From an uncultured Kiritimatiellota bacterium (GTDB lineage Bacteria > Verrucomicrobiota > Kiritimatiellia > RFP12 > DVOR01), in assembly GCA_944389945.1 (NCBI GenBank), contig CALXOF010000011.1, forward strand, positions 539-64,538: 64,000 nt of DNA. The letters run 5' to 3'. Of this stretch, positions 35,687-53,045 are shown piece by piece. The translations under genes were made by a program, and so were the position numbers. Each line of letters begins with the position of its first letter. The first letter of the stretch is position 1. Below the pieces are notes generated by a model that saw nothing but the letters and a program-made list of their open reading frames with translations, was not told the DNA's origin and ran no database searches.

Positions 35687-38600
35687 TCATTTGACGCTTG
35701 CGGTGCGGAGGGCTTCGAGGTCGGCGCGGTCGCGGGGGGTGAGGGTGGCGCCGAGGGAGACGCGGAGGGTGTCGGCAATGCGGCGGGCCTCGTCTTTCTT
35801 GCCTTCGCCGAGGGCGATCCAGGCATCGACAAAGGCGATGCGGGGGTCGACGGTGAGGTGGAGTTTCTCGGCAATGTCGTGGGCCTGTTGGAGGGCTTCG
35901 CGGGCTTCCTCGAGTTTGCCGGCGCGGGCCAGGGTGAGGGCATAGGTGGCGCGGAGGACGTAGTTCGCGGGGGCGAGGCGAAGGGAGGCGTCCTCGGCGA
36001 TGCGGATGGCTTTGTCGCGGTCGGCGGGGTCGTCGGAGCGCGCGAGGGTCTCGGCGTAGTTGTTGAGGAGCTCGAGGCCGGAGGCTTGGCCGAGGGCGTC
36101 GTAGGCCTGGCCGAAGTAGCGGCGGGCCTCGTTGAAGTTGGCGGCCTCCATGCGCTGGGTGCCGATGACGAAGTTGGCGAAGGGGTTGGAGGGCTCGTCG
36201 CGGAGGATGGCGAAGGCATCGGTCTCGGCGGCGGTCTTGTCGCCCAAGCGGCGGTCGATGTGGAGGATGCTTTCGAGGAGGCGGCTGCGGATACGGGGGC
36301 GGAGGGAGTAGGCGCGGCGGTAGTGGTCGCGGGCCTCTTTCCAACGCGCGCGGGCGGCGGGAGGCAGGGTGGCGGAGGAGACGGCCCCGGCCTCGGCCTT
36401 GAGCGCTTGGGACTGGGCCAGACGGCCGCGGATGATGGCCGCGAAGTAGGCGTCCTGCCCGGTGGCCTGGGTGAGGTGGGCGATGTAGCCATCGGCAACG
36501 CGGTAGTGTTCCTCGGCGCGGGTCTCGTTGTTGGCGGCGCGGGCCTTGTCGCCGCGCTCGATTTCGATCATGGCGAGCATGGCCCAGCCGTCGAGGGCCT
36601 CGGGATTGGCCTTGAGGTAGGCGGCGATTTCCTTCGCGGCGCCGTCCAGGTCGCCCATGGCCATGAGGTAGGCCGCTTGGTCGAAGATCAGGGGCGTGAG
36701 CGGCGGTCTGGCCTCATCGAGGGCCTGCCGGGCACGGACCAAGAAGCGCGCGGCCTCGGAGGGGTCGCCGTCGCGCAGGGCGATGCGAGTCAGGCCGCGC
36801 AGGGCCTCGGCGCGGAAGAGGGCGTTGCCCTGGCCTTCCGCCTCCTTCAAGAGTTGCTCGTAGTTCTCCTTGGGGAGGTCGGTCGGGCCCTTGAGGGCCT
36901 CGATGGCGCCGGCGGAGTCCTTGACGATGAGGCAGGCGTCGGCACGGGAGAGGGCCTCGGCGAAGACCGACTTGCGGGCATCGAAGTCGCGCATATAGAC
37001 ATCGACGACGGCCCCGGCGCGGGCCAGGTATTGGCCGGCCTCCTGTAGGTTGCCCCGCTGGAGCGACAGACGGGCCAGGCCGCGCAGGGCCTCGAAGTTG
37101 TCGGGATCGTACTTCAGCACGCCGCGATAGAGCGCCTCGGAGCTCTCCAGCTGGCCGTGGAGCTCGTAGACGGCGGCGGTGGCGACGTTGACGTTGGCGA
37201 GGGAGGCGTCGCCCAGCGCGGCGCGGCGGCCGCCCAGGTAGGAGAGGACGGCCTCTGGCGCGGCGGTGGCGGCCCAGCCCCACCCGCGTTGCACAAAGAA
37301 GGCGTAGTTGCGGATGTAGCCGTGGATGTAGCCCACCGAGCCGAAGTCGTAGCGGCGGCCGGTCTCCTGCAACGATTTGGCGAAGGCCTCGAAGTCGGTC
37401 CGAATTTCCTCGCGGTGCTCGGGCAGGAAGCCCCGCTCGACGCAGAGGTAGAAGGCGTTGAGCTTGGCCGAGAGGTTCTCCGGGTTGGTCTTGAAGGCGT
37501 AGTAGTAGCAATCGGCGGCCTGGGCCAGACGCTTCTGTGCGGTGGCCGCCAGGGTCTGCGCCTCATCGGTGCGGCCCTGGTGTGCGGCCTCGAGGGCGTT
37601 GGCCTCGGCCAGTGCGCCCTGGTCGTTGAGCCACACACCCTGGTTGTTGGCCATGAAGGCGAGGTGCCGGCGGACGGCGCCCTGCGTGCTACGGTTCAGG
37701 TCCCACCACGGGAGGGGCTCGCCCTCCACCACGGGCGCCCAACGGGTCTGCAAGTCGCGTTGCGCCGCGAGCAGGGCCTCCACCTCCGTCTCGGAGGCCA
37801 GGTGTTGAGCGGGCGTGGGCAGATAGAAGGTGCCCTTGGGCAGGGCCCGCTGCGCGCCGGCCCCAACGTCCTCCGTGACGCGATGCGCGTCAAGGGCGAA
37901 CCAGACGTCGGCCCGGTCATAGGTCGCCGCGATTTCACGCACGTTCGGCTGCGCCTTGAAGAAATCCTCCACGAAGACATAGAAATTGTAGTCCAGCAGG
38001 TGCGTCAGGCGCAGACGGTCCCCCACCCCAAGCGCGGGGTCCTCCTCCAGCCGCCGGCGCAGCCGCGCGGCATAGGTGTTGCGCCGCAGGGCGGCGTCCA
38101 ACGCCTTCTCGGCCTCGGAATCCGGCTCCGTTTCGGCCATCCCCAAGCGATCCGCCAGCCTCAGCACAAAGATGGTCAAAGGGAATCCGCGCTCCCGCGC
38201 CACCAGCGCCAGGTGCGGGTCAATCGTCCCCAGCCGGGAGCCCAGCAGATAGGTGCGGTTTTCCTGCCGCAACGCCTCCACCGTCTCGGCGGCGAAACGC
38301 GTCGCCATGCCCCGGTCCATCGCCAAGAAGCGCGCCGTCTGCACCCAGTCCGCCACTCCGAGCGCCGCAATCGCCGCCGCGAAGACCACGCCCGAGACGG
38401 CGCGCCCCGCCTTCACCGCCCCCGGCTCAAGATGCGTGTCCGGGTCAAGATAGGCCAGGGCCTTTGCAAAGAGCTGCACGCCCCAGCCAGCCACCAACAT
38501 GCCGCAGGCCAATGCGCCGGTCCACCCCACGGCCAACGGTTGCGCCCCGAGCCCCAGCCAATTCGCCCAGGGCGACAACGCCTCCAGGCCCCACTGCAAG

Positions 38601-39604
38601 GCCACCGCGCCCGCCGTGACCACCAGACCGGCCACCATCAGGCCCACCGAGCGCACATTGTCCATCAGCCGCCGCGCCACCCCCCAGGCCACCAGCGGCA
38701 ACACCACGGCCCCGCCCAAATTGATGAGCCACGGGCCCACGAACCATCCCGTGATGGTCGGCAAGGCCACCTGTGCCAAGACCTCGCGCTCCACCCCCCA
38801 TAGCGCCGTCGGCGAAAGTCCGCCCGTCACGCGCCACGTGTTGAAGGCCAGCGTCACCCCCGCGCCCAGAGCCAGACCCAGGAACCAAATCGGCAGATTC
38901 TTCGCGCTGTGGTCCCACAGACGCCACTCCGTCATCACCGCCCGCAGGAAGAGCACCGGCAGGAAGAGAAGCACCCACGGCGTCTCCACCGCGCACACAC
39001 CCAGCACAATCGACGCCACCGCCATCCAGCGCCGCTGACCGCCGTTCATCGCGTAGACATTTTGCAGCACCACGCAGAGCAGGAGCAACATGAAGCCCCA
39101 GGCGTTGAAGGTCAGCGCCGTTACGCCATAAAGGCCCGGCATCGTGAAGGTCAGCACCAAGCACACCGCCCCCGCGGCCACCCACGACCACCGCATCTTG
39201 GCCAGACGCCCAGACTCCTCCCCCATGCCGTCCAGACACCAAAAGCGCACCAGCAGCCACGTCAGCATCACCGTCAGCCCCATCACCGCCGCGCCCAACA
39301 GGTTCAGCGCCCCCATCGAAGGCACCTCCCCAAAGGCCCCCGCCAACGTCCACAACAGCGGGTGGCTCGCCCACAACACATTCTGCGGCCCCACAAACTC
39401 CATCACCACCGGCGAGCCCGAGAGCGCCGCCAGTGCCGTCGTGTTCTCGCCCGGCACCGCGAAGTCACCCCCCAGCACCGCGCCCACCACAAACGCCAGC
39501 AGACCAAAGCCCAGCGCCCACAACACCGCCCGCAACCGGGTAGGCCACCGCGGCGCCTCCGGATAAGGACGCGAACACAGATATTCCAGTAACGACCTAA
39601 ACAT
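35687..39604 (-). CDS. Large polytopic membrane protein with C-terminal TPR-repeat array (DUF2723/GT39-like N-domain)
   Basis: Start MFRSLLEYLCSRPYP is in frame. The N-terminal about 550 aa has many TM helices; the C-terminal about 700 aa has TPR-like repeats (ALRGLARLSLQRGNLQEAGQYLARA…). Upstream of this start, the track ORF translates repeat family H. Confidence 0.7.
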   Translation of the reverse strand: MFRSLLEYLCSRPYPEAPRWPTRLRAVLWALGFGLLAFVVGAVLGGDFAVPGENTTALAALSGSPVVMEFVGPQNVLWASHPLLWTLAGAFGEVPSMGALNLLGAAVMGLTVMLTWLLVRFWCLDGMGEESGRLAKMRWSWVAAGAVCLVLTFTMPGLYGVTALTFNAWGFMLLLLCVVLQNVYAMNGGQRRWMAVASIVLGVCAVETPWVLLFLPVLFLRAVMTEWRLWDHSAKNLPIWFLGLALGAGVTLAFNTWRVTGGLSPTALWGVEREVLAQVALPTITGWFVGPWLINLGGAVVLPLVAWGVARRLMDNVRSVGLMVAGLVVTAGAVALQWGLEALSPWANWLGLGAQPLAVGWTGALACGMLVAGWGVQLFAKALAYLDPDTHLEPGAVKAGRAVSGVVFAAAIAALGVADWVQTARFLAMDRGMATRFAAETVEALRQENRTYLLGSRLGTIDPHLALVARERGFPLTIFVLRLADRLGMAETEPDSEAEKALDAALRRNTYAARLRRRLEEDPALGVGDRLRLTHLLDYNFYVFVEDFFKAQPNVREIAATYDRADVWFALDAHRVTEDVGAGAQRALPKGTFYLPTPAQHLASETEVEALLAAQRDLQTRWAPVVEGEPLPWWDLNRSTQGAVRRHLAFMANNQGVWLNDQGALAEANALEAAHQGRTDEAQTLAATAQKRLAQAADCYYYAFKTNPENLSAKLNAFYLCVERGFLPEHREEIRTDFEAFAKSLQETGRRYDFGSVGYIHGYIRNYAFFVQRGWGWAATAAPEAVLSYLGGRRAALGDASLANVNVATAAVYELHGQLESSEALYRGVLKYDPDNFEALRGLARLSLQRGNLQEAGQYLARAGAVVDVYMRDFDARKSVFAEALSRADACLIVKDSAGAIEALKGPTDLPKENYEQLLKEAEGQGNALFRAEALRGLTRIALRDGDPSEAARFLVRARQALDEARPPLTPLIFDQAAYLMAMGDLDGAAKEIAAYLKANPEALDGWAMLAMIEIERGDKARAANNETRAEEHYRVADGYIAHLTQATGQDAYFAAIIRGRLAQSQALKAEAGAVSSATLPPAARARWKEARDHYRRAYSLRPRIRSRLLESILHIDRRLGDKTAAETDAFAILRDEPSNPFANFVIGTQRMEAANFNEARRYFGQAYDALGQASGLELLNNYAETLARSDDPADRDKAIRIAEDASLRLAPANYVLRATYALTLARAGKLEEAREALQQAHDIAEKLHLTVDPRIAFVDAWIALGEGKKDEARRIADTLRVSLGATLTPRDRADLEALRTASVK

Positions 39605-39849
39605 AAAGACTCCTCCGATGGAAATATCTGTAAGTATACCATAAGGGGCGAACGGCGTTGCCGCCCGCCCCGGAGAACGAAGGGCAGAGAATAGAGAACA
39701 GAGAACGGAGAACAGAAAACAGAACGCCCCCGCGGGGCGACGGGTGGAGCCAAGAAATCGGCAAGCCTCCTTTTCCCAGACTCTACTGCGAAGATAGCCG
39801 GCGCTGGGGGCTACCCAATGACAGGTGTCGAAGATGGCATATCTTGCGA

Positions 39850-39960
39850 AAGGCAGTGATGTTGATGTTGATTTAGAGAAGGCAAATGACAGGTCTTTAG
39901 CAAGGGTGTATGATACATTCACCGGCCTCTAAGCCGCTCAACTGCCATTTGGGTAGATTT
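39850..39960 (-). repeat. Mosaic repeat family H copy (reverse orientation)
   Basis: Reverse complement matches 9085-9190. Confidence 0.75.
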
Positions 39961-40003: not shown

Positions 40004-40036
40004 GTTAACTCTTTGAGCGCCCCTTCAGGGGTGCGA
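40004..40036. repeat. Left 28-bp inverted repeat (CTTTGAGCGCCCCTTCAGGGGTGCGAT) bounding the paralog-2 segment
   Basis: Reverse complement of 42090-42122 (27/28 identity). Found only at these two sites in the window. Confidence 0.75.
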
Positions 40037-40205
40037 TAGCGTGGAAATCCCAAGGGCGGCGCAATCAACGGGAGCGAGGAAGCCCATAGGGTTTCCTCGC
40101 AAGACCGTCTTCGCGGTAAAACTTCCCCGGACACTGCTGGGGCTCATTACTGGGACGTTATCTCACGTGTGTGCTTTTGCTATACTGACGGCAAAGGAGC
40201 GCGAC

Positions 40206-41777
40206 ATGGGACAGAAAATCGCACAGGGTGTCTATGACTTCCGCATCATGCGGGAGGATGGCTACGTCTATGTGGACAAGACGGCGTTGCTGGGCGACTT
40301 GGTCACCGGCGGGCGCGATGCCTACTATTTCATCTCCCGTCCGCGGCGTTTCGGCAAGTCGCTCATGCTCTCCACGCTGAAGTACATCTTCCAGGGCAAG
40401 CGCGACCTCTTCAAGGGCCTTGCCATCGACAAGATGGACTACGACTGGGCGGAGTATCCCGTGTTGCACTTCTCCTTCGCCGGCATCAAGGTCAAAACGT
40501 TGGAAGCCTTTGAAAGAAATTTCTGCCTCCGTGTCAAGAAAGTGTTGACCGAGGCAGAATGTTCCTGGAATGAAGAGGCGTCCCCCGATGCGAACTTCAA
40601 TCAAGCCATCACAGAGCTTGCCAAAAAGAAGGGCAAGCCCGTGGTGATTCTCATTGACGAGTACGACGCGCCGGTGGGCCATGCCTTGGCTGACGCCAAA
40701 CTTGCCTCGGACATTAGGCAGGACCTCTCTGATTTCTATATCCAAATCAAGGAATGTGCCTCAGACGTCCGCTTTATGATGATGACGGGCGTCACGCGCT
40801 TTGCCCAACTCTCCGTCTTCTCCGCACTGAACAATCTCAACGACCTGACGATGGATGCGCGTTACGCCACGCTGTTGGGTTACACCGAGGAGGAGTTGGA
40901 CGCCAACTTTGATGAGGACCTGCGCGAGCACGCTGAAATCATGGACCTTTCCTATGAGGACTACCGAGCCGAACTCCGCCGGTGGTATAACGGCTACCGT
41001 TTCGCCAAGAACAACCCCGTGCGGGTCTACAATCCCGTCGCCATCGCCAAGACCCTCGGCCCGAAAGAGCCGACCTTTGCGCCCACGTGGTCGAAGACCG
41101 GAACCCCTTCCGTACTGATTAACTATCTGTCCGACCACGAACTGACGGAGATGGATTACGACAACGTGGAGAACATCTCCGAAGATGACCTCGACATCTG
41201 CCGCTTGGAGGCCATCTTGCCGGTCTCCATCCTCTATCAAAGCGGTTACCTCACCATCAAGGACTATTCCGAATGGGGCTTTACCCTTGGCGTCCCTAAC
41301 GAAGAGGTCCGCCGTGGTCTCGCCTTGCTCTTGGCTCAGTATGCCACCAAGGGTTTTGCGGTCGACTATCATGGTTCGCTCTGCACGCTTCTCAGCAAAT
41401 GCGACTTCCAAGGCTTTTTCGCCAAGCTCAAGGCGCTCTATGCACACCTGACCTACGGTTCCACTGAGATACACGTACACGAATCCAGTTACCTGCGTCC
41501 GCTCTATGCTCTGTTGGCCTCGCACCCCGCCCTCCGCGTGATTGCCGAGGATACGCAGGCCAAGGGACGTGCCGACCTCGTGGTCGAGAGCCAACGTAAC
41601 ATCTACGTCTTTGAGCTCAAGGTCGACAAAACCGCCGCCGAGGCCCTCGCGCAAATCAAAGAACGCGGCTATGCCGAGCCTTACAAAGCCCTGGGTAAGC
41701 CCATCCACCTCATCGGCCTCAACTTCAAATCCGCGACCCACTCCCTCGACGACGCCGTGGTCGAACCGTTGGCGTAA
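40206..41777 (+). CDS. AAA-ATPase-like domain protein with PD-(D/E)XK-like C-terminal domain, paralog 2
   Basis: MGQKIAQGVYDFRIMREDGYVYVDKT; ISRPRRFGKSLMLSTLKYIFQGKRDLFKGLAIDKMDYDWAEYP; C-terminal GRADLVVESQRNIYVFELKVDKT. Confidence 0.85.
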   Translation: MGQKIAQGVYDFRIMREDGYVYVDKTALLGDLVTGGRDAYYFISRPRRFGKSLMLSTLKYIFQGKRDLFKGLAIDKMDYDWAEYPVLHFSFAGIKVKTLEAFERNFCLRVKKVLTEAECSWNEEASPDANFNQAITELAKKKGKPVVILIDEYDAPVGHALADAKLASDIRQDLSDFYIQIKECASDVRFMMMTGVTRFAQLSVFSALNNLNDLTMDARYATLLGYTEEELDANFDEDLREHAEIMDLSYEDYRAELRRWYNGYRFAKNNPVRVYNPVAIAKTLGPKEPTFAPTWSKTGTPSVLINYLSDHELTEMDYDNVENISEDDLDICRLEAILPVSILYQSGYLTIKDYSEWGFTLGVPNEEVRRGLALLLAQYATKGFAVDYHGSLCTLLSKCDFQGFFAKLKALYAHLTYGSTEIHVHESSYLRPLYALLASHPALRVIAEDTQAKGRADLVVESQRNIYVFELKVDKTAAEALAQIKERGYAEPYKALGKPIHLIGLNFKSATHSLDDAVVEPLA

Positions 41778-42050: not shown

Positions 42051-42089
42051 TTGCGTCTTTGCGGTCTCCATTTTCCCCGGACAGGATTG
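42051..42089 (+). repeat. 39-bp direct repeat TTGCGTCTTTGCGGTCTCCATTTTCCCCGGACAGGATTG (left copy; right copy at 49007-49045)
   Basis: Perfect 39/39 identity between the two copies, which bracket the low-GC island. A diverged reverse-orientation copy lies at about 5960-6000. Confidence 0.85.
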
Positions 42090-42122
42090 ATCGCGCCCCT
42101 GAAGGGGCGCTCAAAGAAGTCC
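42090..42122. repeat. Right 28-bp inverted repeat partner of 40004-40036
   Basis: GATCGCGCCCCTGAAGGGGCGCTCAAAG. Confidence 0.75.
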
Positions 42123-42345: not shown

Positions 42346-42906
42346 CTAGTCACGAGGCCGCGTGTAGGGCACGGGGCCATAACGATTGGATCTCGGGTCA
42401 CTGGGATATAACAACATAATAAAAAGTGTAATCCAACCTATAATCGGGAGGAAATGCAGATACCACCATCCACCAGAGAAGTTCGCGTCATGCAACCTTC
42501 TGACCGTCAGCGAGATGCTTGGGATGCATGTAACAAGAACATAGAGAGAGATTACGATTCCTATGGGCGTACCAATGAAATAGCTTGAGTTTTCGTGATC
42601 ATAGAGAATTAAGACAAGCGCGTCCGGTAGAGCGAAGAGAATCCTCATCCACCAGTATTCTGCGCGAGAAGCACGCCCATTCAATGACCAATGAGTCCAA
42701 TACCCCATCCACGCCTCATCGAATGAGGCAATCCGTTGTGGACCTGCCGGGACTTCCTCTTCTCTTGGTACGTATTGTTGATTTTCCCTAGGAGGTGGCG
42801 TGCGCGGTGAATTCGCCTTACGGTCACTTGTTGGCCGTGTCCGTCTTTGTTGCTTGGCGTGCTTTTGCCCAATATGCTCTTTCAAGAATCGTTCCGCTTC
42901 ACTCAT
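42346..42906 (-). CDS. DUF805-family inner-membrane protein
   Basis: RASRAEYWW..RRLHD and 3-4 TM helices fit DUF805 (YhaH/YjdF-like), with an extra about 70-aa basic, P-rich N-terminal extension. Overlaps the upstream gene stop by 8 bp. Lies in the low-GC island. Confidence 0.65.
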   Translation of the reverse strand: MSEAERFLKEHIGQKHAKQQRRTRPTSDRKANSPRTPPPRENQQYVPREEEVPAGPQRIASFDEAWMGYWTHWSLNGRASRAEYWWMRILFALPDALVLILYDHENSSYFIGTPIGIVISLYVLVTCIPSISLTVRRLHDANFSGGWWYLHFLPIIGWITLFIMLLYPSDPRSNRYGPVPYTRPRD

Positions 42907-44005
42907 GGTCGCCCTCCTTATCTTTTCGGGCAGTAGGGATAGGAGTTCGTTGCATACGATTATTCTGCATCTGTGGTAATGACAAGCGCTCCATCACGAG
43001 ATCCCTTCCTTGACGTTGGCTGAAGGGGGAGTCTAAATGCTTTGATTGCGCGTTATTCGCAGAATTTGTCTCTTTTCTGTCGGGGACAACCTTATCTATT
43101 CCCTTTGGTTGGTTTTTGGGTGTTTCGACATCTTTATCTGGCGCTACTGATGGCTTCGCTTTTGTTGCCCCGTTTTGTTCTGCATTCATTTCTTGCAACG
43201 CATTCCGAGTTTGCTCCAACTCGATTACGAGGGCGTCTCGCTCTTTCTGTACTGTCGCATACTCTTCCGTAAGAGTTTCTAGCGTGCGTTTGGTGCTTTG
43301 CCATTGCCAAATGGTCCATCCCAACGCAGCGAGGGCCAAGAGCGTCGTAATCGCACAAGCAATTGTAATGGTCACACCAATAGAAGGCGTTTTAGACGAC
43401 TTTGGTACGCTGTGAGTAGATGCTACCCTGATTGAATTGGTCTGAGAAGGTCGTTTCAGAGTCGGGATTTTCCCAACATCGTGTGATACATGTGGGAATG
43501 AAGTTTTGACTTGCACGGATTCTCCCGGCGCGGATCTACGTAGGGTCGCCGAGGCTGTCGCTGGCAATGCTGCGACAAGCGCGCCAACCGAAACAAAATC
43601 AGACATCTTTGTGGGAATTGCGGATAAAGGCGACTGCGTTTGCCCATCGGCCTCGGCTTCGAAGAATGCTTGTGGGGCATGAGTCGGTTCGGCAAGTGCC
43701 GAATCGGCAAGAAGTGCCTCGAAATCCGTTGAAGCGGCATCTTCCCGTGTCACCCAGGTAACTGCCAGATAGGTCGCGTCCCGTCCACGGAAGTCCCATC
43801 CCGGCACACTCTGACACCGCATCGCGAAGACACGGTCGGGGGTAATCCAAATCCCCTCGAACCCGGCCTCACCTGCATCGAAGTCCGGCAATCCGCCAAA
43901 AGCTTTCCGGCAACCATCAAGGGAGGCAAAGTCAATCTCTGAGCGCGGATACTTCCAGTTCAACCCATGTTCCGCCGTATAAATGGCCAGAGGATATAGT
44001 CCCAT
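42899..44005 (-). CDS. Single-pass membrane protein: unknown about 230-aa N-terminal cytoplasmic domain, TM, coiled coil, disordered S/K/P-rich tail
   Basis: Start MGLYPLAIYTAEHGLNWKYPRSEIDF lies 2 bp after the PrsW-like gene stop. TM segment IGVTITIACAITTLLALAALGWTIWQW; coiled coil TLETLTEEYATVQKERDALVIELEQTRNALQEMNAEQ. No family recognised. Confidence 0.55.
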   Translation of the reverse strand: MGLYPLAIYTAEHGLNWKYPRSEIDFASLDGCRKAFGGLPDFDAGEAGFEGIWITPDRVFAMRCQSVPGWDFRGRDATYLAVTWVTREDAASTDFEALLADSALAEPTHAPQAFFEAEADGQTQSPLSAIPTKMSDFVSVGALVAALPATASATLRRSAPGESVQVKTSFPHVSHDVGKIPTLKRPSQTNSIRVASTHSVPKSSKTPSIGVTITIACAITTLLALAALGWTIWQWQSTKRTLETLTEEYATVQKERDALVIELEQTRNALQEMNAEQNGATKAKPSVAPDKDVETPKNQPKGIDKVVPDRKETNSANNAQSKHLDSPFSQRQGRDLVMERLSLPQMQNNRMQRTPIPTARKDKEGDHE

Positions 44006-44007
44006 CG

Positions 44008-45072
44008 TCACACTCCTTTCGGTGCCATTCCCCAAGCCGCAACTTGAGTTGCACCTCGTTTTGCAAGGTAAAAGATCAGAATCCACAGTGCCAAACAACC
44101 CCATCGCACTGGACCTTGCGCTGGTCCGTGTACCGGCACAATCATATTCCAAATGCAATGAATGACCGCCATGCCAATCAAAACCGCCCAAGGAAGCCAC
44201 CCTCCGAGAGCCAGCCATCCGATACGATTCGGACCGCGGGTTGCCCACATTGCCCCGCCAAGCGCACCGGTCCAAGCCAAATGCATCAATGGTGAGAGTA
44301 GGCCTCTTACCAAAAGAACCAATGTGGAGGGGGCGCCACCTTCACCATATCCATAGGCATAACCTATGGTTTCGAAGATGGCGAAGCCAGAGCCTACGCA
44401 GACTCCAAGGGCCAATCCAGAGAAAATCCCGGGGAATTGCTTGCTGAACATCGCCAGAATCAAAAGAACCAATCCTTTGGCGGGTTCTTCTATCAGCCCT
44501 GCGAGTTCAGCAGCAGGAGGGATTTCCAATAATTCCCATAAAAAGAGTGACAAAAATAGTGATAGAAACCCTCCTAGTATTGTCACTAATGCGGCAACCC
44601 ACCAGGTGACACGCCGTGTCACATCCATCTCGCAAAAGAGCGTGATGGCAGTCACAGGGATACAGGCCGCCATCACACAGGTATACAACCAGTGAAAGCC
44701 TGGTTCCACTGCCATCAACATCCACAATACGATGCACGTGGCCACCCCAGCACCCAGCACCCACCTCCACCGCCAACTCCATGGACGCCCCAACAGGCGA
44801 AACCAAGCATCGACCGGACATTCCACCGGCATATGTTTTGTTTCAGGCCATGGAGAGTCCCAATTGTTTCTCTCTTGCTCTTCATCTTGTTGAGAGAAAA
44901 TATAGTCCCATTCGTCTTCCCGTGTATTCTCTTCCGTCTCTCTCCATTCTGTCCGCTGCTGTGACTTAGAGGAATGCTCTTCTGGTCTAGGCCGAACCAC
45001 AGAGTGATACGTCGCCTTGTGGCCTTGTTCTCCGGAGAAGCGGCGTGCCAAAAAGTTGTCTTTTTGATTCAT
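44008..45072 (-). CDS. PrsW-family (CPBP-like) intramembrane glutamic protease
   Basis: Multi-TM protein with EEPAKG (EExxK), FAIFETIGY (FxxxE) and HLAWTGALGG motifs characteristic of PrsW-family proteases, plus an acidic about 100-aa N-terminal region. Confidence 0.65.
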   Translation of the reverse strand: MNQKDNFLARRFSGEQGHKATYHSVVRPRPEEHSSKSQQRTEWRETEENTREDEWDYIFSQQDEEQERNNWDSPWPETKHMPVECPVDAWFRLLGRPWSWRWRWVLGAGVATCIVLWMLMAVEPGFHWLYTCVMAACIPVTAITLFCEMDVTRRVTWWVAALVTILGGFLSLFLSLFLWELLEIPPAAELAGLIEEPAKGLVLLILAMFSKQFPGIFSGLALGVCVGSGFAIFETIGYAYGYGEGGAPSTLVLLVRGLLSPLMHLAWTGALGGAMWATRGPNRIGWLALGGWLPWAVLIGMAVIHCIWNMIVPVHGPAQGPVRWGCLALWILIFYLAKRGATQVAAWGMAPKGV

Positions 45073-45102
45073 CGTGGCAGAACCTTTGCGTCAAGACCTG
45101 AT

Positions 45103-47271
45103 TCAGAAGCCATAGCGCATACGAGCGCGTACGCGTTCAAGTGCCTTTTTTGCGTTTTCCTCCCCCACGTTGTAATTTTGCTTAGCGGCTTCCTTATACC
45201 ATTTCTCAGCTTCCTTAAGTTTATTCAATTCTTCATAGGCGACGCCAAGATAGTATTGCGCAGAGGCGTCCCCGCGCTTGGCGCGTGGTAAAATATAATT
45301 GACGGCTGTTGTGCAGTTCTTTTGGACACCGGTTCCGGTCAAATACATCATGCCCAAGTAAAATTGCGCATAATCGTCTCCGTTGTTCATAGCCATTTGA
45401 AGCCAACGAAGCGCTTCCGAATAAGAGACGGACACACCCCAGCCTTGGCAATACATGATTCCTAACACGCGTTGCGCCGCTGCATTTCCTTGCTCTGCGG
45501 GTTGAAGGAATAATCTGGCGGCCTCTTGGTAAGATTGGATAACCCCTTGCCCATTATAATAGAGACAGGCCAATTCATATTGTGCATCAACATAGCCTTG
45601 ATCTGCGGCCCTTTGATACCATCCCGCAGCTTTGGGATAAGACTGGGGAACGCCTGTCCCATTTGCGTAATGCACTGCCAAGTTATATTGCGCGGCAGGC
45701 ACGCCCTGGATTGCCGCTTTCGTATAATAATCTATGGCAACAGTGGTCGATGCATTAACCCCATATCCATTGTCGTACATCACGCCTAACAGATTGTAGG
45801 CCTTCCCATAATTTTGGTCGGCGGCCTTCCACAACCATTTTAAGGCTTCTTGATAGGAGCGTTGGCCTCCGGTTCCCAGAAAATAGGCTTCGGCGAGTTT
45901 ATATTGAGCCTCTGGGAGGTCTTCTTCCGCTGCTTTTAGGTACCACTCAACGGCCTTGTCCCATGATTGTTCAACTCCTAAACCCTTTTCATAAAGGTTG
46001 CCCAAGTTGGTCTGCGCATACAGATGACCTTGTTCTGCTGCTTGTTGATACCAATGAAAGGCCATCGCGTACGACTGCTCCACGCCATTACCATATTCAT
46101 ACAGGAGGCCAAGCAAATTTTGTGCAACGGGCTCTCCTCCTTCCGCAGCTTTCTCATACCAATCTGCGGCTTGAGACATGGATTGTCTCACACCCCTCCC
46201 ATTTGAATAGGCCCATCCAAGGTCCGTGTGAGCAACAAGGTCGCCGGCGTTCGCGGCTTTACGAAGCCAACGAAGACCATTTCGGTCGGATTGGAGACTT
46301 CCTTTTGAAAACAAATACAACTCGCCCAATAAACGCATGGCGATGACATTGTCTTGCTCTGCGGACCGTTTAAACCACTTTTGGGCTTCTGTTTCAGATT
46401 GGTCTACGCCATCCCCATTCTGATAGCATTCTCCAAGACGCATTTGCGCCTCCGCATTGCCTTGTTCTGCAGATTTACGAAACCATTCCGCTGCGCGCAT
46501 ATTTGACTGTTCAACCCCCTTGCCAAGCGCGTAGGCGTATGCGACAATGAGTTGGGCTTCTTCGTCTCCTTTTCCCGCCAAAGAGTGCCATACGATAAAT
46601 GCCTTTTCGGGAGATTTCTCAACGCCAAGTCCTTCTTCATACAGGACGGCGAGAATCCATTGGGCAAATGGATTATCCATATTGGCGGCTTTTAGTATCC
46701 AGGGAAATGCTTTTCCGTAGTCTTGCGGGACAAGTATCCCTTTACAATATACCTCCCCAAGCGCGACCATTGCCTCTAGATAGTCCTTGTTTGCCGCGTT
46801 TGTCAGCCAGGTGACCATCGCGTTGCCGTCTTTGGGAAGCGAGTTGTCTTTCAATCTTCCAGTGTCTGTTTCGTACCCATAATGGCGGGCCACATAAAAA
46901 CAAACCTCCGCAGAGGCGTGCACGACAGCATCATCACCTGCGGCAGAAAGAAGGTTGTCCAGCGTCACATGGGCATCACTCAAGCAGGTCTCAAAGTCGT
47001 TGTTATGTAGAGGGCATATCTGAAGCGTGGTGGACTCTCTGTCCTCAAATCCAAAGTTCGCGCAAAGGGCAAGGCGACATTGTGCCGTTTCGTTGGCTCT
47101 GTTGGCGGCTTCTCGATAACAATTATATGCGCTGGCGTCACCTGATTGTAGGAGCGTGTCGCCACGTTCACAGTAAGCATCCGCACGATAGGACCGAATG
47201 AGCGGACGAGCGATGAAAGCTGACAACAGAAGAATGACTTCTATGACAATGATGGGGGTAATTTTTTGCAT
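45103..47271 (-). CDS. Sel1-repeat (SLR) protein, 722 aa, N-terminally membrane-anchored
   Basis: N-terminal TM/signal anchor ITPIIVIEVILLLSAFIA, then about 19 tandem Sel1-like repeats (G.GV.QS...A..WY.KAAEQG). GC is clearly lower than window average. Confidence 0.85.
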   Translation of the reverse strand: MQKITPIIVIEVILLLSAFIARPLIRSYRADAYCERGDTLLQSGDASAYNCYREAANRANETAQCRLALCANFGFEDRESTTLQICPLHNNDFETCLSDAHVTLDNLLSAAGDDAVVHASAEVCFYVARHYGYETDTGRLKDNSLPKDGNAMVTWLTNAANKDYLEAMVALGEVYCKGILVPQDYGKAFPWILKAANMDNPFAQWILAVLYEEGLGVEKSPEKAFIVWHSLAGKGDEEAQLIVAYAYALGKGVEQSNMRAAEWFRKSAEQGNAEAQMRLGECYQNGDGVDQSETEAQKWFKRSAEQDNVIAMRLLGELYLFSKGSLQSDRNGLRWLRKAANAGDLVAHTDLGWAYSNGRGVRQSMSQAADWYEKAAEGGEPVAQNLLGLLYEYGNGVEQSYAMAFHWYQQAAEQGHLYAQTNLGNLYEKGLGVEQSWDKAVEWYLKAAEEDLPEAQYKLAEAYFLGTGGQRSYQEALKWLWKAADQNYGKAYNLLGVMYDNGYGVNASTTVAIDYYTKAAIQGVPAAQYNLAVHYANGTGVPQSYPKAAGWYQRAADQGYVDAQYELACLYYNGQGVIQSYQEAARLFLQPAEQGNAAAQRVLGIMYCQGWGVSVSYSEALRWLQMAMNNGDDYAQFYLGMMYLTGTGVQKNCTTAVNYILPRAKRGDASAQYYLGVAYEELNKLKEAEKWYKEAAKQNYNVGEENAKKALERVRARMRYGF

Positions 47272-47282
47272 AGCGCCCTCCT

Positions 47283-48464
47283 TTATGCGGTCGCGATGAC
47301 AAACCACCAAGCGATGAGTATCAGCACACCAAGTAAAATTGTGATGGCGATGGCTGCAAATCGTTTTTCACGAGAGTCGGCAGTGGCCTGCAGATAACGA
47401 GAAATCCCTGCCAAGAGCGCGTTTTTCCACCGAGCGCCGAGTTCGGTTTTCGGGTCACAATCGCAAAGCCTTTCGGCAAGGCCTTGTGATCCATGCCGGA
47501 CACAATCAAGCAATGCCCGGATATCCTTTTGTTCATCAGAGGAAAAGATGATGCCGTTCTCAACGAGTCCACGTTCTGAGAAAAACCACAATGCTACGGA
47601 AGCTTTACGTGCGGAGAGATAGGCATTCCAATCGTGGATAAGGGAGTGCGCATCCCGTTCGGACAGTGTTTCGCAAAAGTCCTTCCAGGCATGCGAAAAA
47701 GCCCTAAGCGCATTTTGCAATGCCTCAAAGGGGTTTTGAACACAGGGTGCGTCAACAAAACAACGCGCAAATAGGCCATCAAGTCCAAATGTCTCATGGG
47801 CCTCACCAATGGCGGAAACGGCAAGGACGTCTAGCGATGGGAAGTTTTTGGCGAGAAGGGGAAGGTAATGGGCAACATATGCTTGTGGGTCAAACTCCCC
47901 CATGCCAAGGTCGACGTAACGGTCGATTTGGGTGAGGAGGAGGGTGATTTGGGGGTGAGAGGGGAGGCGGTGGAGGTAGTCCAGGCAGGCGTTGGTGACC
48001 CAGACGGCATCAAGATTGGCGCCATTGCCGGCCACATCCTCCGCATCGGCAAGATTAAAAAGGACGAAAACCTGATCAGAGTCAATCAAATGCCCAAGGA
48101 GTGCGGAAATCTCCTCTTGGTTTGCGGCAACACGTTCGCGAAAGCCGTCTGGGTCTGGGTCGTCCTTTGCATCAAGGAAGGCCAAACGGTAGACTTCACC
48201 CGGATAATCGAGGATGTCCAACGTCCGTTGAACCTCGTCTTGGTATACCACACTCCATTGCAACTGTCGCAACGATGTGGTCTGGTGCGGCAGGCTGTTC
48301 CCGGAGACATTCTCCGGCACCTGCGAGAGAAAACGGAAGGCACCGCGGGTTTCAGGGCGCAGATACCACCCTTCAGCCTCGTGCGCCTTGAAGGCATTGA
48401 CGAGCGCCATTGTCAACACCGTCTTACCGGAACCTTCGACACCCAAAAAGGTTACATTTCCCAT
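47283..48464 (-). CDS. Ras-like/TRAFAC P-loop GTPase with C-terminal transmembrane tail anchor
   Basis: Start MGNVTFLGVEGSGKTVLTMAL (G1), DILDYPGE (G3 DxxG) and LLTQID (G4-like), a helical middle domain, and C-terminal TM FAAIAITILLGVLILIAWWFVIATA. AAGGAG Shine-Dalgarno box 7 nt upstream. Confidence 0.65.
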   Translation of the reverse strand: MGNVTFLGVEGSGKTVLTMALVNAFKAHEAEGWYLRPETRGAFRFLSQVPENVSGNSLPHQTTSLRQLQWSVVYQDEVQRTLDILDYPGEVYRLAFLDAKDDPDPDGFRERVAANQEEISALLGHLIDSDQVFVLFNLADAEDVAGNGANLDAVWVTNACLDYLHRLPSHPQITLLLTQIDRYVDLGMGEFDPQAYVAHYLPLLAKNFPSLDVLAVSAIGEAHETFGLDGLFARCFVDAPCVQNPFEALQNALRAFSHAWKDFCETLSERDAHSLIHDWNAYLSARKASVALWFFSERGLVENGIIFSSDEQKDIRALLDCVRHGSQGLAERLCDCDPKTELGARWKNALLAGISRYLQATADSREKRFAAIAITILLGVLILIAWWFVIATA

Positions 48465-49006
48465 GATATTCTCCTTATTGATGCCAATGGACAACACGAG
48501 GACCGGGCATGGTACACCATGCCGGATGGTTTACACGACAGATTCTGATTGCGACAGACAACATAAAAGGCGCACTCCGTTTGCACGTTCCCAAACAGAG
48601 GCCGACCAAAGCCCGCAAAAGAAAACGTACAAACAAAAGCACGCCAGGGGATAACCCTGACGCGCCTCCGCGGTACCTTCGCCTTTTGCGTAGAAATTGG
48701 TCGTTTCTGTTTGGCGACTGTATGCGAAAACGCATCCAAAGCGCTCCAAAGGGGGAGCCCTCTGGAGCTATGTGCCATAAGAATAGCTCATAACCCGAGC
48801 AACTGTCAACTCTCAATAGTGTTCGGGGAAGGTTTTGTCCATGTATATTGTTTTCCGCGCCTCGAAGAGGGGTAAAGTGTTCTGCCACACTGCCAGACCT
48901 TTTTCCTGTAGAAAAGATCACGAGGCGCGAAACGGAGGGCGGCGGGCGCGGTCAGCGGCGAAGCCGCAGAGCGGCCGATGGAGTCCGAAGCGGTTCGCGC
49001 CCACAG

Positions 49007-49045
49007 TTGCGTCTTTGCGGTCTCCATTTTCCCCGGACAGGATTG
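49007..49045 (+). repeat. 39-bp direct repeat, right copy (see 42051-42089)
   Basis: Identical 39-mer. Confidence 0.85.
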
Positions 49046-49089: not shown

Positions 49090-49160
49090 GACCCTTAAGG
49101 GTTTCGCCTCGGACCACTATAGGGTCTCACCTCGGACCCTTAAGGGTTTCTCCAAGAGCC
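49090..49160 (-). repeat. REP-like element copy A6 (truncated)
   Basis: Contains GGACCACTATAGGGTCTCACC and two ACCCTTAAGGGT palindromes. Confidence 0.7.
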
Positions 49161-49415
49161 CTCCAGCCCCCTGGGGAAAGGGGGCCGGATGGCCTCTACA
49201 TCTGCTATATAATTATATAATAAGGTAGGGGCGAAAGGGGCGCTGATGCGCCCCGGAGAACGGTGCCAGTTTCCACGAAGACACAAAAGGAACGCAAGGG
49301 CCTGGGCACTTCACCGTTCGGCGCATATGCGCCTCACTCACTATCCCCATCCCTTGCGTTTCTGGAGTTTTGTGATACAACAGTTTTGTGATACAACAGT
49401 GATGGGAAATAAAAG

Positions 49416-49488: not shown

Positions 49489-50331
49489 TCAGTCCTCCTC
49501 GCCGTCTTCGTCTTCCTCGTCGTCCAACGGCTTGACGAGGGCAAAGAATTCCTCCACCGCGTCATTGACCTTCTTGATCAGGTGGTTGACGTCTGTCCGG
49601 TCGGCCTTCTTGGGAAGGTTTTCCGGGGTGATCAATTCGCCGAGGTCCTCCGTGAGGTGCTTGATACGGCCGATATAGGCATGGGTGTCGCTCGTGATCG
49701 AACGCAAGAGTTGATGTCGGTGCTCGGGGTCTGCGATTTCGTTGGCGAGGATGTTGGCGAAATGAAGGGTCGTGGAAGGATCGGCAATCATGAGGACAAA
49801 CCGAAAGCCCTCGATGGTCCCGGAGGGGTCAATGGTAATCCGGGGATCCTCTTTCAAGATGGAGATAAGGAAAGAGGCGGTGTGAAGATCGTCTGTCGCG
49901 GCGTTGACGAAGTTGGCGCGCCCATATTCCTTCACAATCTCGTCCAATTCCTCGGCAGAGAGGTCGTCGAGGGGCTCATCTCCCGTCTCCTCTTCCTCCG
50001 CATCTTCCTCTTCTGAGACCTCACTGTCGCCATCGTCGTCCTCGTCTTCCGGTTGGACGACGAGGCGGTCGTAGAGATCGGAGATGGATTCGGCGCGTCC
50101 GGGGAGGCCACGGCTATCCCGGATGACACCCCAATCCTCGTCCTTGATTGCGATGTCGAGGTCACCGACAAACCCGATGTGAAGCACATCCTTGTCCTTC
50201 TCATCGAAGCAAACCCCCTGGATGTCCTGCCACCCAACGAGGAAGCCACCTCGGCACTTCGGCAAGAAAAGTCCCTCTTCCACAAAAATCGCCGCATAGG
50301 CGAGTTCGGGGTTTTCGTCTACATTGTCCAT
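49489..50331 (-). CDS. Hypothetical acidic protein (poly-D/E stretches)
   Basis: 280-aa ORF with reasonable composition and a strong downstream terminator; no motif recognised. Confidence 0.5.
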   Translation of the reverse strand: MDNVDENPELAYAAIFVEEGLFLPKCRGGFLVGWQDIQGVCFDEKDKDVLHIGFVGDLDIAIKDEDWGVIRDSRGLPGRAESISDLYDRLVVQPEDEDDDGDSEVSEEEDAEEEETGDEPLDDLSAEELDEIVKEYGRANFVNAATDDLHTASFLISILKEDPRITIDPSGTIEGFRFVLMIADPSTTLHFANILANEIADPEHRHQLLRSITSDTHAYIGRIKHLTEDLGELITPENLPKKADRTDVNHLIKKVNDAVEEFFALVKPLDDEEDEDGEED

Positions 50332-50676
50332 GATTCAACCTTCCTTCTGGATTGTCTTTCGTGCGGTAGACACCGGGCAGACTTCCCGCCAAGCATATCA
50401 CGCAACGCCATTGTAGCATAATCCCCGCGACAACCAATAATATCGGGGAGAGCTTTTCACGAAGACACAAAGGAACGCAAGGGACTGGCACAAGGGGCGC
50501 TAGCGCCCCCCGGAGATTAGCTGATTGGCTGATTGGTGGCGGCTGACGCCGCTCTGCACAACGCCCCCTCCGTCGCGCGCTTGCCGCGCGTTCCGTTCTC
50601 CGTGGCCGTGGAAGGTTTGTCCCTTCGGGCCTGCACGCTCCGTTTTCCGTTCTCCGGGGATGGCCATCGGCCGCCC

Positions 50677-50692
50677 CCTATTATGTTATAAT
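50677..50692 (+). promoter_or_regulatory. -10 box (TATTATGTTATAAT) upstream of flp
   Basis: TATAAT ends 8 nt before the ATG at 50699, implying a leaderless or very short leader. Confidence 0.4.
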
Positions 50693-50698
50693 GACGGC

Positions 50699-50842
50699 AT
50701 GAGATCCGGGCAGACGATGGTCGAGTATATCCTGGTGCTGGTGGCGCTCTTGGGGGCGGCGCTGGCGGCGGGTTTCTTGGTCAGGGCCGTGGACGCGCAG
50801 GAGGCGCGGACGGAGACGTTGCTCGGGTCGGGTTACCCTTAA
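50699..50842 (+). CDS. Flp-family type IVb pilin 1
   Basis: MRSGQTMVEYILVLVALLGAALAAGFLV has the Flp G-x4-EY prepilin peptidase motif; 47 aa. Confidence 0.7.
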   Translation: MRSGQTMVEYILVLVALLGAALAAGFLVRAVDAQEARTETLLGSGYP

Positions 50843-50858
50843 AGGAAAGGACCGAACG

Positions 50859-51095
50859 ATGCGGATGCGTAAGAGCAAGCAAGGTCAGGCGATGGTGGAA
50901 TACATCATCATCGTGGTGTTGATCGCAATCGCCGGCATCGCGCTGTGGACGCTCTTCGGCGACGCCATCGCGAAGAAGGTCTCCGGCGCCACCTCGGCCA
51001 TCGACGAGGAGAAGGGCTCCGAGGCCCAGGACGCCTACCAGGAGATGGAAGGCGGCGAGGGTCTGCGGCGCTTGGACGAAAGCGGCAATATGTGA
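50859..51095 (+). CDS. Flp-family type IVb pilin 2
   Basis: MRMRKSKQGQAMVEYIIIVVLIAIAGIALWTLF has the same G-x4-EY motif; 78 aa. Confidence 0.7.
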   Translation: MRMRKSKQGQAMVEYIIIVVLIAIAGIALWTLFGDAIAKKVSGATSAIDEEKGSEAQDAYQEMEGGEGLRRLDESGNM

Positions 51096-51637
51096 GCGCG
51101 CGACGCGACAACGGCCAACGGCGCGGTCAGGCGATGATTGAGAGCCTGATCGTCTTGGTCTTTTTGTTGGCGGCGTTCTACTTCCTCTACGACTTCGCCT
51201 ACGCGGCAGTGGCGCGCACGCTCCTGGAGAACGGCGCGGCCAGCGCGGCGCGGGCAGATGCCGTAGGCTTCAACGATTTCCAACAGGCCAAGAGTCTGCG
51301 GGTGGGAATGATTCCCGTCTCGGGCCGCCGCTTGGTGCCCGACGGCGGGCGCCAGGTGAACGGCGCGGGCGGGGAATTGGCCCTGGTGCGTACCTATTTG
51401 CAGACTCAGAACTGGTCGGAGGCGAACGGCGTGCTCAACTATGAGCGCTGGGAGGGGCTGACCCACACGGCGCGGCAGGATGGGGGCCTCTCGCGCGTGG
51501 AGGCGACCTTCGAGATGCCGATGGGGATGCCGTGGCGCTTGGGCGCAATCTTCGGCTATGCGCCGTGGGACGACACGCGGGAAATCCGCGCGGATTGGGC
51601 GGTGGAGGACCATGCGTCGCTCTATCTCTCGCGCTAA
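51092..51637 (+). CDS. TadE-like pseudopilin
   Basis: GTG start; leader VSARRDNGQRRG followed by QAMIESLIVLVFLLAAFYF (G-x4-E). Size and layout typical of TadE/TadF. Confidence 0.6.
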   Translation: MSARRDNGQRRGQAMIESLIVLVFLLAAFYFLYDFAYAAVARTLLENGAASAARADAVGFNDFQQAKSLRVGMIPVSGRRLVPDGGRQVNGAGGELALVRTYLQTQNWSEANGVLNYERWEGLTHTARQDGGLSRVEATFEMPMGMPWRLGAIFGYAPWDDTREIRADWAVEDHASLYLSR

Positions 51638-52928
51638 GGCCGGCCAAGCGGTGGTCTTGCTGCTGGCGCTCTTGGTGGCGCTCGCGGCCATCGTGGTCTG
51701 GATTGCCGTCTCGAACAGCCTCACCCTGCGGCGTCTGCGCCTCCGCGACGGCGGGGACGCGGCGGCGCTCGCGGCGGCGCGTTGGCAGGCGGCGGGGCTG
51801 AATCTGGTGGGCGAGCTGAACCTCATCCAGGCCTATATGTTGGCAGACAACGCGGACAACGCCGCGGCCGCGGAGGCCCTCCACGAACTGCGCCAGCGTG
51901 TCCAGTTGGCGACCCCCTTCCTGGCGCTCGTCTCGGCCAGCGAGACGGCCGCGGCCAACGACCTGCCGGAGATTCCGGAAGCGGCGGAGGTGGTGCGCGA
52001 AATCGCCGACGAGGCCCTCTTCCAAGACTTCTATCCCGGCGCGGAGGCGGACTTCCGCGCGATGGCCCAGGCGGCCACCCTACGTCCCCTCCATGCGGCC
52101 CCGGCCAGTCCGGGAATGGGTCCGGACGGCGGCAACCTCTTGGTGAATCAGGATTTCTACGAAGCCGTGTTGGGCGACGATTGGTGTTGGTTCTGGTTCA
52201 ACGCCTATTCCTTCCTGCAACACTACGGCGGCCACACCCACTTCGGGCCCGTGCCGCCCCTGGCCACGGAGCCCTTCCTCGGCCTCCGCTTGACGACGTT
52301 GGAAACCTCGCTGAACGACCTCATTGGCGCCGGCGCTCCCATCAACGCACAGTTGGTCGAGTTGGGCCACCCCACCCTTCAGCCGCCCGCGGACAACGGC
52401 ACGGCGGCGGCCCTCGAGCGGACGCAGGTGGTGCGGTGGAGCGCCTATGACTCCGGCTCTTGGGGCCCGTGGGAGGCCATGCACGCGGGCGAATTGCCAA
52501 TCGATGGCACGCTGAAAGAGGAATACGACTACTTCGGCGCCTCGGCGGCCATCTCGGTCGCGGAGGAGGGCTATGAGTGGCTGGCCGTGGCCAAGGCCTT
52601 CGGCGACGTGGGCGGCGGCAACCCGACCGCGGCGGGTCTGGTGTTGGGCGGCTTTGACGACGTGCGCCTTATCCCGGTGGACGCGGGCGACGTGGGCATC
52701 ACCGCCTTCAACCCGACGTGGATTCGCCACCTCCGCCGCCATATCCAGAGCTACGCCTCCACGGGCCTGACCTTCGATAACTGCCGTTACTGCGAGGCCC
52801 TGCGCAAGTTCGACAACCGCGCCTGGCGTACCCAAGTCATCGCCTGGCTCGCCCAAAACGGCCACACCTGCCGCCGTCCCACCCCAGACGGCGACGGTTC
52901 CGGCGGCGGCGCCCGATTCGGCCACTAG
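51612..52928 (+). CDS. TadG-like (Tad_N) putative pilus-associated protein
   Basis: MRRSISRAKAGQAVVLLLALLVALAAIVVWIAV is a TadE/TadG-type N-terminus. 438 aa, overlapping the previous gene by 26 bp. Confidence 0.5.
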   Translation: MRRSISRAKAGQAVVLLLALLVALAAIVVWIAVSNSLTLRRLRLRDGGDAAALAAARWQAAGLNLVGELNLIQAYMLADNADNAAAAEALHELRQRVQLATPFLALVSASETAAANDLPEIPEAAEVVREIADEALFQDFYPGAEADFRAMAQAATLRPLHAAPASPGMGPDGGNLLVNQDFYEAVLGDDWCWFWFNAYSFLQHYGGHTHFGPVPPLATEPFLGLRLTTLETSLNDLIGAGAPINAQLVELGHPTLQPPADNGTAAALERTQVVRWSAYDSGSWGPWEAMHAGELPIDGTLKEEYDYFGASAAISVAEEGYEWLAVAKAFGDVGGGNPTAAGLVLGGFDDVRLIPVDAGDVGITAFNPTWIRHLRRHIQSYASTGLTFDNCRYCEALRKFDNRAWRTQVIAWLAQNGHTCRRPTPDGDGSGGGARFGH

Positions 52929-53045
52929 GGGCGGCGGCGTTGCCGCCGCCCTGGAGAACGGAGACCGGAAAACGGAGAACAGAGCGTGCGGCAAGCGCGC
53001 GACGGAGATGCCGCTGTATGACCTCCTTTAGCACATCCCAAAAGG

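Follow-up and report, generated by a model that had tools for sequence, protein, structure and literature searches.

The stretch of DNA analysed here (hereafter the window) comprises 64,000 nucleotides (nt) of contig CALXOF010000011.1 from an uncultured Kiritimatiellota bacterium (GCA_944389945.1). Its minus strand carries five adjoining open reading frames (ORFs; 42346-48464, all coordinates being positions in the window) that encode, from 5' to 3', a GTPase, a Sel1-repeat protein, a PrsW-family intramembrane protease, a single-pass protein of 368 amino acids (aa) with a TagF/longin-like model and a DUF805 protein. We are almost certain that this module is real and conserved. For its function we favour a membrane-based receptor-GTPase switch whose outputs would be a protease and a membrane protein, probably acting as a conflict or stress system; the probability of this reading is put at roughly one half.

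Conservation and organisation of the module

Profiles of the five proteins were scanned over 111 fetched loci (labelled L001 and so on), and the resulting census was collapsed to 34 lineages of Lentisphaerota and Kiritimatiellota sharing less than 90% identity with one another. A GTPase gene and a TagF-like gene are adjacent in 27 of these 34 lineages, and most of the others are cut by contig ends or are ambiguous. The trio of PrsW, TagF-like and DUF805 genes follows a fixed order in nine of the 34, at protein identities of 35-70% and in differing chromosomal contexts. Recurrence of this gene order in diverged genomes shows that the arrangement is not due to chance, and the census supports the five genes as one conserved functional unit. 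The initial annotation had accepted that its proposal would fall if the genes never occurred together elsewhere; both the trio and the GTPase/partner pair do. Many lineages hold the two-gene core only, and since many relatives are two-gene systems without either PrsW or Sel1, these two components are accessory. Some loci carry additional copies: several GTPase and Sel1 pairs stand ahead of one PrsW/TagF-like/DUF805 set in L081, three DUF805 genes occur in L080, and short and long GTPases are paired at some loci (L016, L080). Close relatives of the GTPase were found only in metagenome-assembled genomes of Lentisphaerota and Kiritimatiellota from gut and rumen, with homologues at 21-29% identity in Planctomycetota.

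Within the window, the ORF listing of 38-53 kb reproduces exactly the operon first proposed, with gaps of 11, 30 and 2 base pairs (bp) between successive genes and then an overlap of 8 bp. The starts used are ATG codons supported by a ribosome-binding site and are also those chosen by public gene calls, which give the same five lengths on near-identical contigs; AAGGAG lies 7 nt ahead of the GTPase ATG. Even the distant loci L087 and L084 retain the 8-nt overlap that joins the TagF-like gene to the membrane-protein gene downstream of it. Two further parts of the initial annotation held up. Hydropathy and AlphaFold models agree that all five products are membrane-anchored: one at its C-terminus, one at its N-terminus and one as a single-pass protein, the remaining two being polytopic. 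The operon does lie in an island of low GC content, ~50% overall versus ~65% in the flanks (0.49-0.54 over 42-49 kb versus 0.60-0.70 on either side).

A divergent DO-GTPase and its constant partner

The GTPase consists of a G domain (residues 1-236), a helical bundle (240-335) and a long helix ending in a transmembrane (TM) segment at 372-390, where hydropathy bears out the C-terminal tail anchor assigned to it at the outset. Its AlphaFold2 (AF2) model, with a mean predicted local distance difference test (pLDDT) score of 88.8, has a TRAFAC GTPase fold, and the nearest folds retrieved by Foldseek are EF-Tu, YcjX, Rho, Rab and MglA (E ~1e-4). Across 34 relatives the motifs GVEGSGKT, DYPGE, TQID and VSAI are invariant or nearly so: the P-loop GVEGSGKT does not vary, nor do D86, P88, G89 and E90 of DYPGE, and TQID occupies the NKxD position after the strand at 172-178. 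The family motif FNLAD is also present. A glutamate following the Walker B glycine is the hallmark of the DO-GTPases (Kaur et al. 2020, PMC7159879). The Pfam family DO-GTPase1 is matched by 16 of the 34 relatives and DO-GTPase2 by 14 (E<0.01; best E 1.5e-5). With the DYPGE Walker B motif and these matches among relatives, the Ras-like class first given to the protein was dropped in favour of a DO-type one. Judged by its motifs, the protein is a divergent DO-GTPase, which would place the core of the module in a class of GTPase-centred conflict systems that had been predicted before.

The constant partner of this GTPase is the 368-aa protein, which comprises a globular domain (residues 1-170), a single strong TM segment by hydropathy (209-227) extending into a coiled coil up to ~280, and then a tail without ordered structure. 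Residues R33, D71, R75 and W84 of the globular domain are invariant. Its predicted topology is N-in, with one TM and the tail outside the cytoplasm. Initially the protein was listed as carrying an unknown domain, and it has no Pfam family: at E<=1, a search with 32 members returned only TM and coiled-coil noise, and neither GAP1-N nor TagF (PF09867). The N-terminal domain is nevertheless confidently modelled. TagF is its closest solved fold and proteins of the longin and Roadblock type come next, a class known to regulate GTPases (PMC3521125, PMC3747258); the modelled fold is called TagF/longin-like here.

Other components and a shared N-terminal peptide

Pfam upholds the other three original domain calls. 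For DUF805 (PF05656) the match scores 97.3 bits against a cut-off of 25.7 (1e-27) and spans model positions 3-111 of 111. The protein has a cytoplasmic N-terminal peptide, MSEAERFL, followed by a disordered linker of ~70 aa and three TM helices. In every full module the DUF805 protein begins M-[NST]-E-A-[ED]-[RKT]-[FY]-L, and a start of the M-x-EAERFL type is also found on the distant DUF805 protein of L087 and on a DUF4190 protein in L084, with a shorter variant, MDKFL, in L091 and L092. In two-gene systems that bear TM segments, the peptide comes immediately after the TagF-like domain and ahead of two TM helices. Across 7153 ORFs the motif has 21 matches, all of them within these module proteins. 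A candidate docking peptide for the partner domain is MSEAERFLKEHIG. The single-pass protein TagZ recruits TagF through an N-terminal cytoplasmic peptide of its own, which is conserved (bioRxiv 10.64898/2025.12.08.692957), and by analogy this pair offers a precedent for peptide docking here.

The PrsW protein matches PF13367 at 76.3 bits against a cut-off of 23.5 (3e-21) and carries seven hydrophobic segments, preceded by an N-terminal extension (~95 aa) in the cytoplasm. Four motifs that we take to be catalytic, EEPxK, GFAxxET, SPxxH and HxxWN, are invariant in eight orthologues of 35-56% identity, and the protease would therefore be under selection as an active enzyme. It falls far below the NCBIfam equivalog for PrsW of the Bacillus subtilis type (NF033739), scoring 16.8 bits against 225, and the conserved gene set of the compared loci includes no sigma or anti-sigma gene. 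PrsW accompanies only single-TM partners with an extracytoplasmic tail, and always lies directly upstream of them, a pattern compatible with the 368-aa protein as its substrate. Its N-terminal cytoplasmic extension and those of its orthologues contain conserved motifs of their own, namely D-x-F-L near the start, Y-x-S-V-V-R with an invariant arginine, and R-P-W-S ahead of the first TM; the D-x-F-L motif resembles the EAERFL peptide of DUF805.

The Sel1 protein (PF08238; 364.9 bits, 1e-112) has an N-terminal TM anchor (residues 7-25), a cysteine-rich region (~30-125) and then the repeats. A count of 19 repeats had been given at first; the 36-aa register visible over residues 150-715 reduces this to ~15-16, of which 14 stretches pass Pfam. 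NCBIfam returns partial matches to AlgK, ExoR and MotX. In relatives L090 and L087 a GTPase, one TM helix and Sel1 repeats form a single polypeptide, and in L084-86 a GTPase is joined through one TM helix to an FGE-sulfatase-type domain. Because relatives fuse Sel1 to the GTPase across one TM helix, Sel1 is assigned as the input module. By analogy with these fusions Sel1 would be tied functionally to the GTPase and placed outside the cytoplasm, so that a periplasmic sensor or scaffold is its probable identity.

Relationship to known systems

The closest reference is the DO-GTPase/GAP1-N2 class (Kaur, Burroughs, Iyer and Aravind 2020, eLife; Pfam PF19975, PF19993, PF20013). The module shares with it a TRAFAC GTPase with a DxxGE Walker B motif and a constant partner gene directly downstream, together with a membrane setting in which both GTPase and partner carry a C-terminal TM, and an occurrence in bacteria of the Planctomycetes-Verrucomicrobia-Chlamydiae (PVC) group. 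Common to both, too, are the occasional pairing of GTPase paralogues and a variable set of peptidase, TM-rich, repeat or FGE-sulfatase-type components. It differs in that the GTPase of the window lies below the Pfam thresholds, Zn ribbons are lacking, the partner has only one globular domain (~170 aa), GAP1-M and GAP1-C both being absent, and no FNIII match was found in the five products or in the neighbouring products checked. Neither PrsW, DUF805/DUF4190 nor the EAERFL peptide is mentioned in Kaur et al. 2020 (PMC7159879). The homologues in Planctomycetota do pass the Pfam DO-GTPase thresholds. Downstream of each is a protein of 550-700 aa (one with a weak match to GAP1-N2 at E 8e-4), with VWA or trypsin genes beyond it, which is the architecture that Kaur et al. 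describe for the GAP1-N2 systems of PVC bacteria, with TM anchors on both core proteins (PMC7159879). In view of the only suggestive domain alignment described below, the module is treated as a divergent, reduced and undescribed branch of the DO-GTPase/GAP1 class and not as a member of it.

Three other comparisons are instructive. TagF, a type VI secretion system (T6SS) accessory protein that acts with TagZ, resembles the partner in fold only and without detectable sequence similarity; the partner is itself membrane-anchored, TagF has no known GTPase partner, and T6SS genes were found in none of the loci examined. Among the closest systems we also count MglA/MglB and the eukaryotic longin/Roadblock-GTPase pairs (Ragulator-Rag, Mon1-Ccz1-Rab7, DENN-Rab, SRX-SRbeta). 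The PrsW-RsiW pair of the B. subtilis sigma-W pathway likewise sets a PrsW-family protease with the same motifs beside a single-pass, N-in protein with an extracytoplasmic tail; the protease of the window, however, is not the B. subtilis PrsW equivalog, there is no extracytoplasmic function (ECF) sigma or anti-sigma domain, and cleavage here is only predicted. The remark in the initial annotation that this combination is not one known to it as a described module can be kept in part: no paper was found that mentions PrsW together with DUF805, but the core falls in the predicted DO-GTPase conflict class. What is newly reported is the modelled TagF/longin-like fold of the partner, the association of PrsW with DUF805/DUF4190 and the shared N-terminal peptide of docking type.

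Proposed function and competing explanations

Under the favoured reading, the periplasmic Sel1 repeats would bind a ligand, as the GTPase-TM-Sel1 and FGE-sulfatase-type fusions suggest, and the tail-anchored GTPase, with its intact G1-G5 motifs and its fold, would cycle at the cytoplasmic face by nucleotide-dependent switching. The tethered TagF/longin-like domain, whose fold and near-obligate gene adjacency point to the GTPase, would bind it as a GTPase-activating protein (GAP), a guanine nucleotide exchange factor (GEF) or a platform, in the manner of longin and Roadblock domains in other systems. DUF805 would then be recruited through M-x-EAERFL, to judge from the distribution of the motif, its fusion to the TagF-like domain and the TagF-TagZ analogy. 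PrsW would add a proteolytic step, for which the PrsW/RsiW analogy makes the 368-aa protein, in its extracytoplasmic or TM part, the likeliest substrate. The most likely role would be to sense an envelope-level insult or an invader and to set off a conflict- or defence-type response directed at the membrane. This wiring forms a coherent picture from the fusions, the fold and the motif distribution, together with the DO-GTPase, TagF-TagZ, longin-GTPase and PrsW-RsiW analogies, and is held at even odds.

Two-gene relatives occur in defence contexts at two sets of loci. In L029 (7507-14193) a type IIG-like restriction-modification (RM) locus is interrupted by a GTPase/TagF-like pair, with its methyltransferase genes on one side and its helicase/nuclease gene on the other, and two-gene relatives in L007-9 lie beside DarTG (DarT/NADAR), PycTM, PIN and the candidate defence gene HEAT_CxxC_PDDEXK. 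In L084 (4836-6827; also L085 and L086) the GTPase-TM-FGE-sulfatase/lectin-fold fusion is followed by bAvd and a reverse-transcriptase (RT) fragment, near DruA and an IS66 transposase. An active diversity-generating retroelement was considered for the L084-86 contigs but not confirmed: bAvd and the RT fragment are adjacent, and no pair of template and variable repeats (TR/VR) was detected in them.

A number of observations weigh against this reading and against the kinship on which it draws. The GTPase of the window scores 16.1 bits against DO-GTPase2, below the cut-off of 27, and the parent DO-GTPase systems are themselves computational predictions. The partner lacks GAP1-M and GAP1-C, and none of its 32 members gives a Pfam GAP1-N match. 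By hhalign, a broad alignment of its domain against the GAP1-N2-like N-domain of Planctomycetota gave P 2.4e-4 to 6.7e-4 at a probability of 20-27%, in a co-linear arrangement that sets RVFAxRC..WDFRGR against GRxAxTRC..DxAGR, and a narrow alignment was non-significant (E 0.74). The broad alignment is only suggestive of a remote relationship, limited to the N-domain, and homology to GAP1-N2 is not claimed. One lineage, L078, is clearly without the partner but carries GTPase and Sel1. The topology of the split form of Sel1 is assigned by analogy and its positive-inside count is ambiguous; several relatives reside among housekeeping genes (mutS, purL, the Mla operon). In PADLOC-DB 2.0 four of the five proteins are unmatched, the sole match being a spurious, repeat-driven one of Sel1 to PtuA.

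We favour a role in defence or conflict over two other functions that the same genes could serve. The first is a housekeeping envelope-stress pathway through regulated intramembrane proteolysis, in which site-1 cleavage by PrsW, of the kind that the anti-sigma factor RsiW undergoes in Bacillus, would free the cytoplasmic TagF-like domain to alter the state of the GTPase or gene expression, with no part in conflict. The intact motifs of PrsW and its constant place directly upstream of a single-TM partner speak for such a pathway, as does the topology of that partner, which is the topology of anti-sigma factors (N-in, one TM, extracytoplasmic tail). The relatives amid housekeeping genes fit it as well, as do the full-length sigma-70 gene that follows the module in L001 and L002 and a PSP paper that links DO-GTPases to membrane stress (PMC11237479). 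Yet the conserved set includes neither a sigma factor nor a transcription factor and most family members lack PrsW altogether, while the patchy distribution, the low-GC island and neighbours that vary between near-identical strains sit uneasily with housekeeping; the expansion of GTPase+Sel1 and DUF805 paralogues and the defence-island contexts fit an accessory role better. We regard the envelope-stress pathway as rather unlikely. More improbable again is a module by which a gut symbiont interacts with its host or with surfaces: Sel1 would bind a ligand of host or cell-wall origin, and the GTPase/partner pair would control where membrane components are localised or exported, for instance in polarity, adhesion or colonisation. 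Sel1 proteins are often envelope or host-interaction factors, which the partial matches to AlgK, ExoR and MotX would suit, the close relatives all come from gut and rumen metagenomes, and in L084-86 the sensor position is taken by an FGE-sulfatase-type domain next to bAvd and an RT fragment, a setting in which diversified ligand-binding proteins are typically found. The module shows no conserved association, however, with genes for secretion, adhesins or polarity; the lack of a TR/VR pair leaves an active diversity-generating retroelement unconfirmed, and the two-gene relatives without a sensor and the RM and DarTG contexts go unexplained.

A rearrangement-prone and repeat-rich region might also have brought together five unrelated neighbours whose tight spacing is incidental. 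Against this stand the recurrence of one order in nine lineages at 35-70% protein identity with different flanks, the gene fusions between components, the 8-nt overlap conserved in L087 and L084, and the common peptide motif. The neighbourhood census refutes this explanation for practical purposes, and we consider it exceedingly improbable.

Genomic context and other features of the window

The features of the module and its edges are collected in Table 1.

Table 1. Components of the five-gene module and elements at its boundaries, in window coordinates.
Feature	Position	Strand	Details and basis
Tail-anchored GTPase	47283..48464	-	393 aa; motifs, AF2 model, fold, hydropathy
Sel1-repeat protein	45103..47271	-	722 aa; Pfam, hydropathy, 36-aa register
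PrsW-family intramembrane protease	44008..45072	-	354 aa; PF13367, intact motifs
Single-pass TagF/longin-like protein	42899..44005	-	368 aa; model, fold search, hydropathy
DUF805 membrane protein	42346..42906	-	186 aa; Pfam, hydropathy, N-terminal peptide
Non-coding leader 5' of GTPase	48465..49006	-	542 nt; one sigma-70-like match at 48809-48780
39-nt perfect direct repeat, left copy	42051..42089	+	none expected by chance
39-nt perfect direct repeat, right copy	49007..49045	+	none expected by chance
GC-rich hairpin 28-mer, 3' end of module	42090..42117	.	last segment common to strains with module in a different context

Sigma-70-like promoter matches in the leader are no more numerous than expected from shuffled sequence, scans for promoters and terminators together performed no better than shuffles, and no Rfam family occurs in the module or its 542-nt leader.

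The two 39-nt repeats bracket the module exactly, both in the window and in L004, which is identical to the window through both copies. L001 and L002 are 98.5% identical to the window over 49138-42090, the homology breaking exactly at 42090, the inner edge of the left repeat, and they are without the downstream copy. Directly after DUF805 these two strains carry a full-length sigma-70 gene (RpoD-type, 698 aa; L001:13042-15138, L002:9429-11525), where the window has the 39-mer and an AAA-ATPase gene. Attachment (att) sites were considered for the repeats and set aside, given the missing downstream copy in L001 and L002 and the lack of any integrase at the module in the window or the compared strains; the 39-mer could serve as a site for recombination or represent a regulatory element present in repeated copies. 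Phage or plasmid carriage of the module was likewise dropped, no relatives having been found in viral contigs, a phage collection or plasmids. In the favoured reading the module was acquired horizontally, in keeping with the low-GC island, the exact module boundary and the differing neighbours in strains of 98.5% identity.

An inverted copy of the 28-nt hairpin lies at 40010-40037, and the two copies flank an AAA-ATPase_like/PDDEXK_9 gene (40206-41777; Pfam 2.5e-58 and 8.9e-17). A second gene of this type, at ~28722-30324, is 83% identical in nucleotides to a copy in L003. An interspersed repeat of ~100 nt occurs at 14751-14852, 28570-28676, 35568-35668, 53042-53159 and 49107-49285, the copies being 86-93% identical to a segment of L001 and one of them lying just upstream of the module; it looks like a repetitive extragenic palindromic (REP) element or one of the miniature inverted-repeat transposable element (MITE) type.

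Just beyond the island, a probable Tad/Flp pilus cluster at 50525-52928 includes two pilin-like ORFs, one of them of the Flp/Fap type (50859-51095; below the Pfam threshold at 7.7e-5), together with hydrophobic N-termini resembling that of TadE. Between the upstream repeat region and these pilus genes, 49489-50331 (minus strand) encodes a very acidic protein of 280 aa unmatched in Pfam and PADLOC. Upstream of the island, 35687-39922 (minus strand) encodes a very large protein of up to 1411 aa with a polytopic membrane region and TPR repeats (TPR_19, 4.6e-10).

Implications for the family

Going further, one might tentatively regard the module as the type example of a new transmembrane 'receptor GTPase' class of immune or stress systems, a possibility that we hold to be less than even. 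An extracytoplasmic repeat domain or diversified lectin-fold sensor for phage or competitors at the envelope would signal to a DO-type GTPase under TagF/longin-like control and thence to a DUF805/DUF4190 effector docked through EAERFL, with PrsW as a second safety catch. Were this true, it would provide the first function for DUF805 and a prokaryotic instance, in the PVC group, of a membrane GTPase under longin-type control. If the favoured reading is right, DUF805 and DUF4190, both widespread and of unknown function, would gain their first functional context as the peptide-tagged outputs of a GTPase switch, and a PrsW-type protease would be tied to a pathway that does not involve a sigma factor. 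If the module is a defence system, it is one missing from current defence databases. The DO-GTPase systems predicted in 2020 would acquire a compact, experimentally tractable form of two to five genes, and the TagF/longin fold would emerge as a constant partner of GTPases in bacteria beyond the MglB-type systems, with a bearing on the origin of the eukaryotic longin-GTPase pairs.

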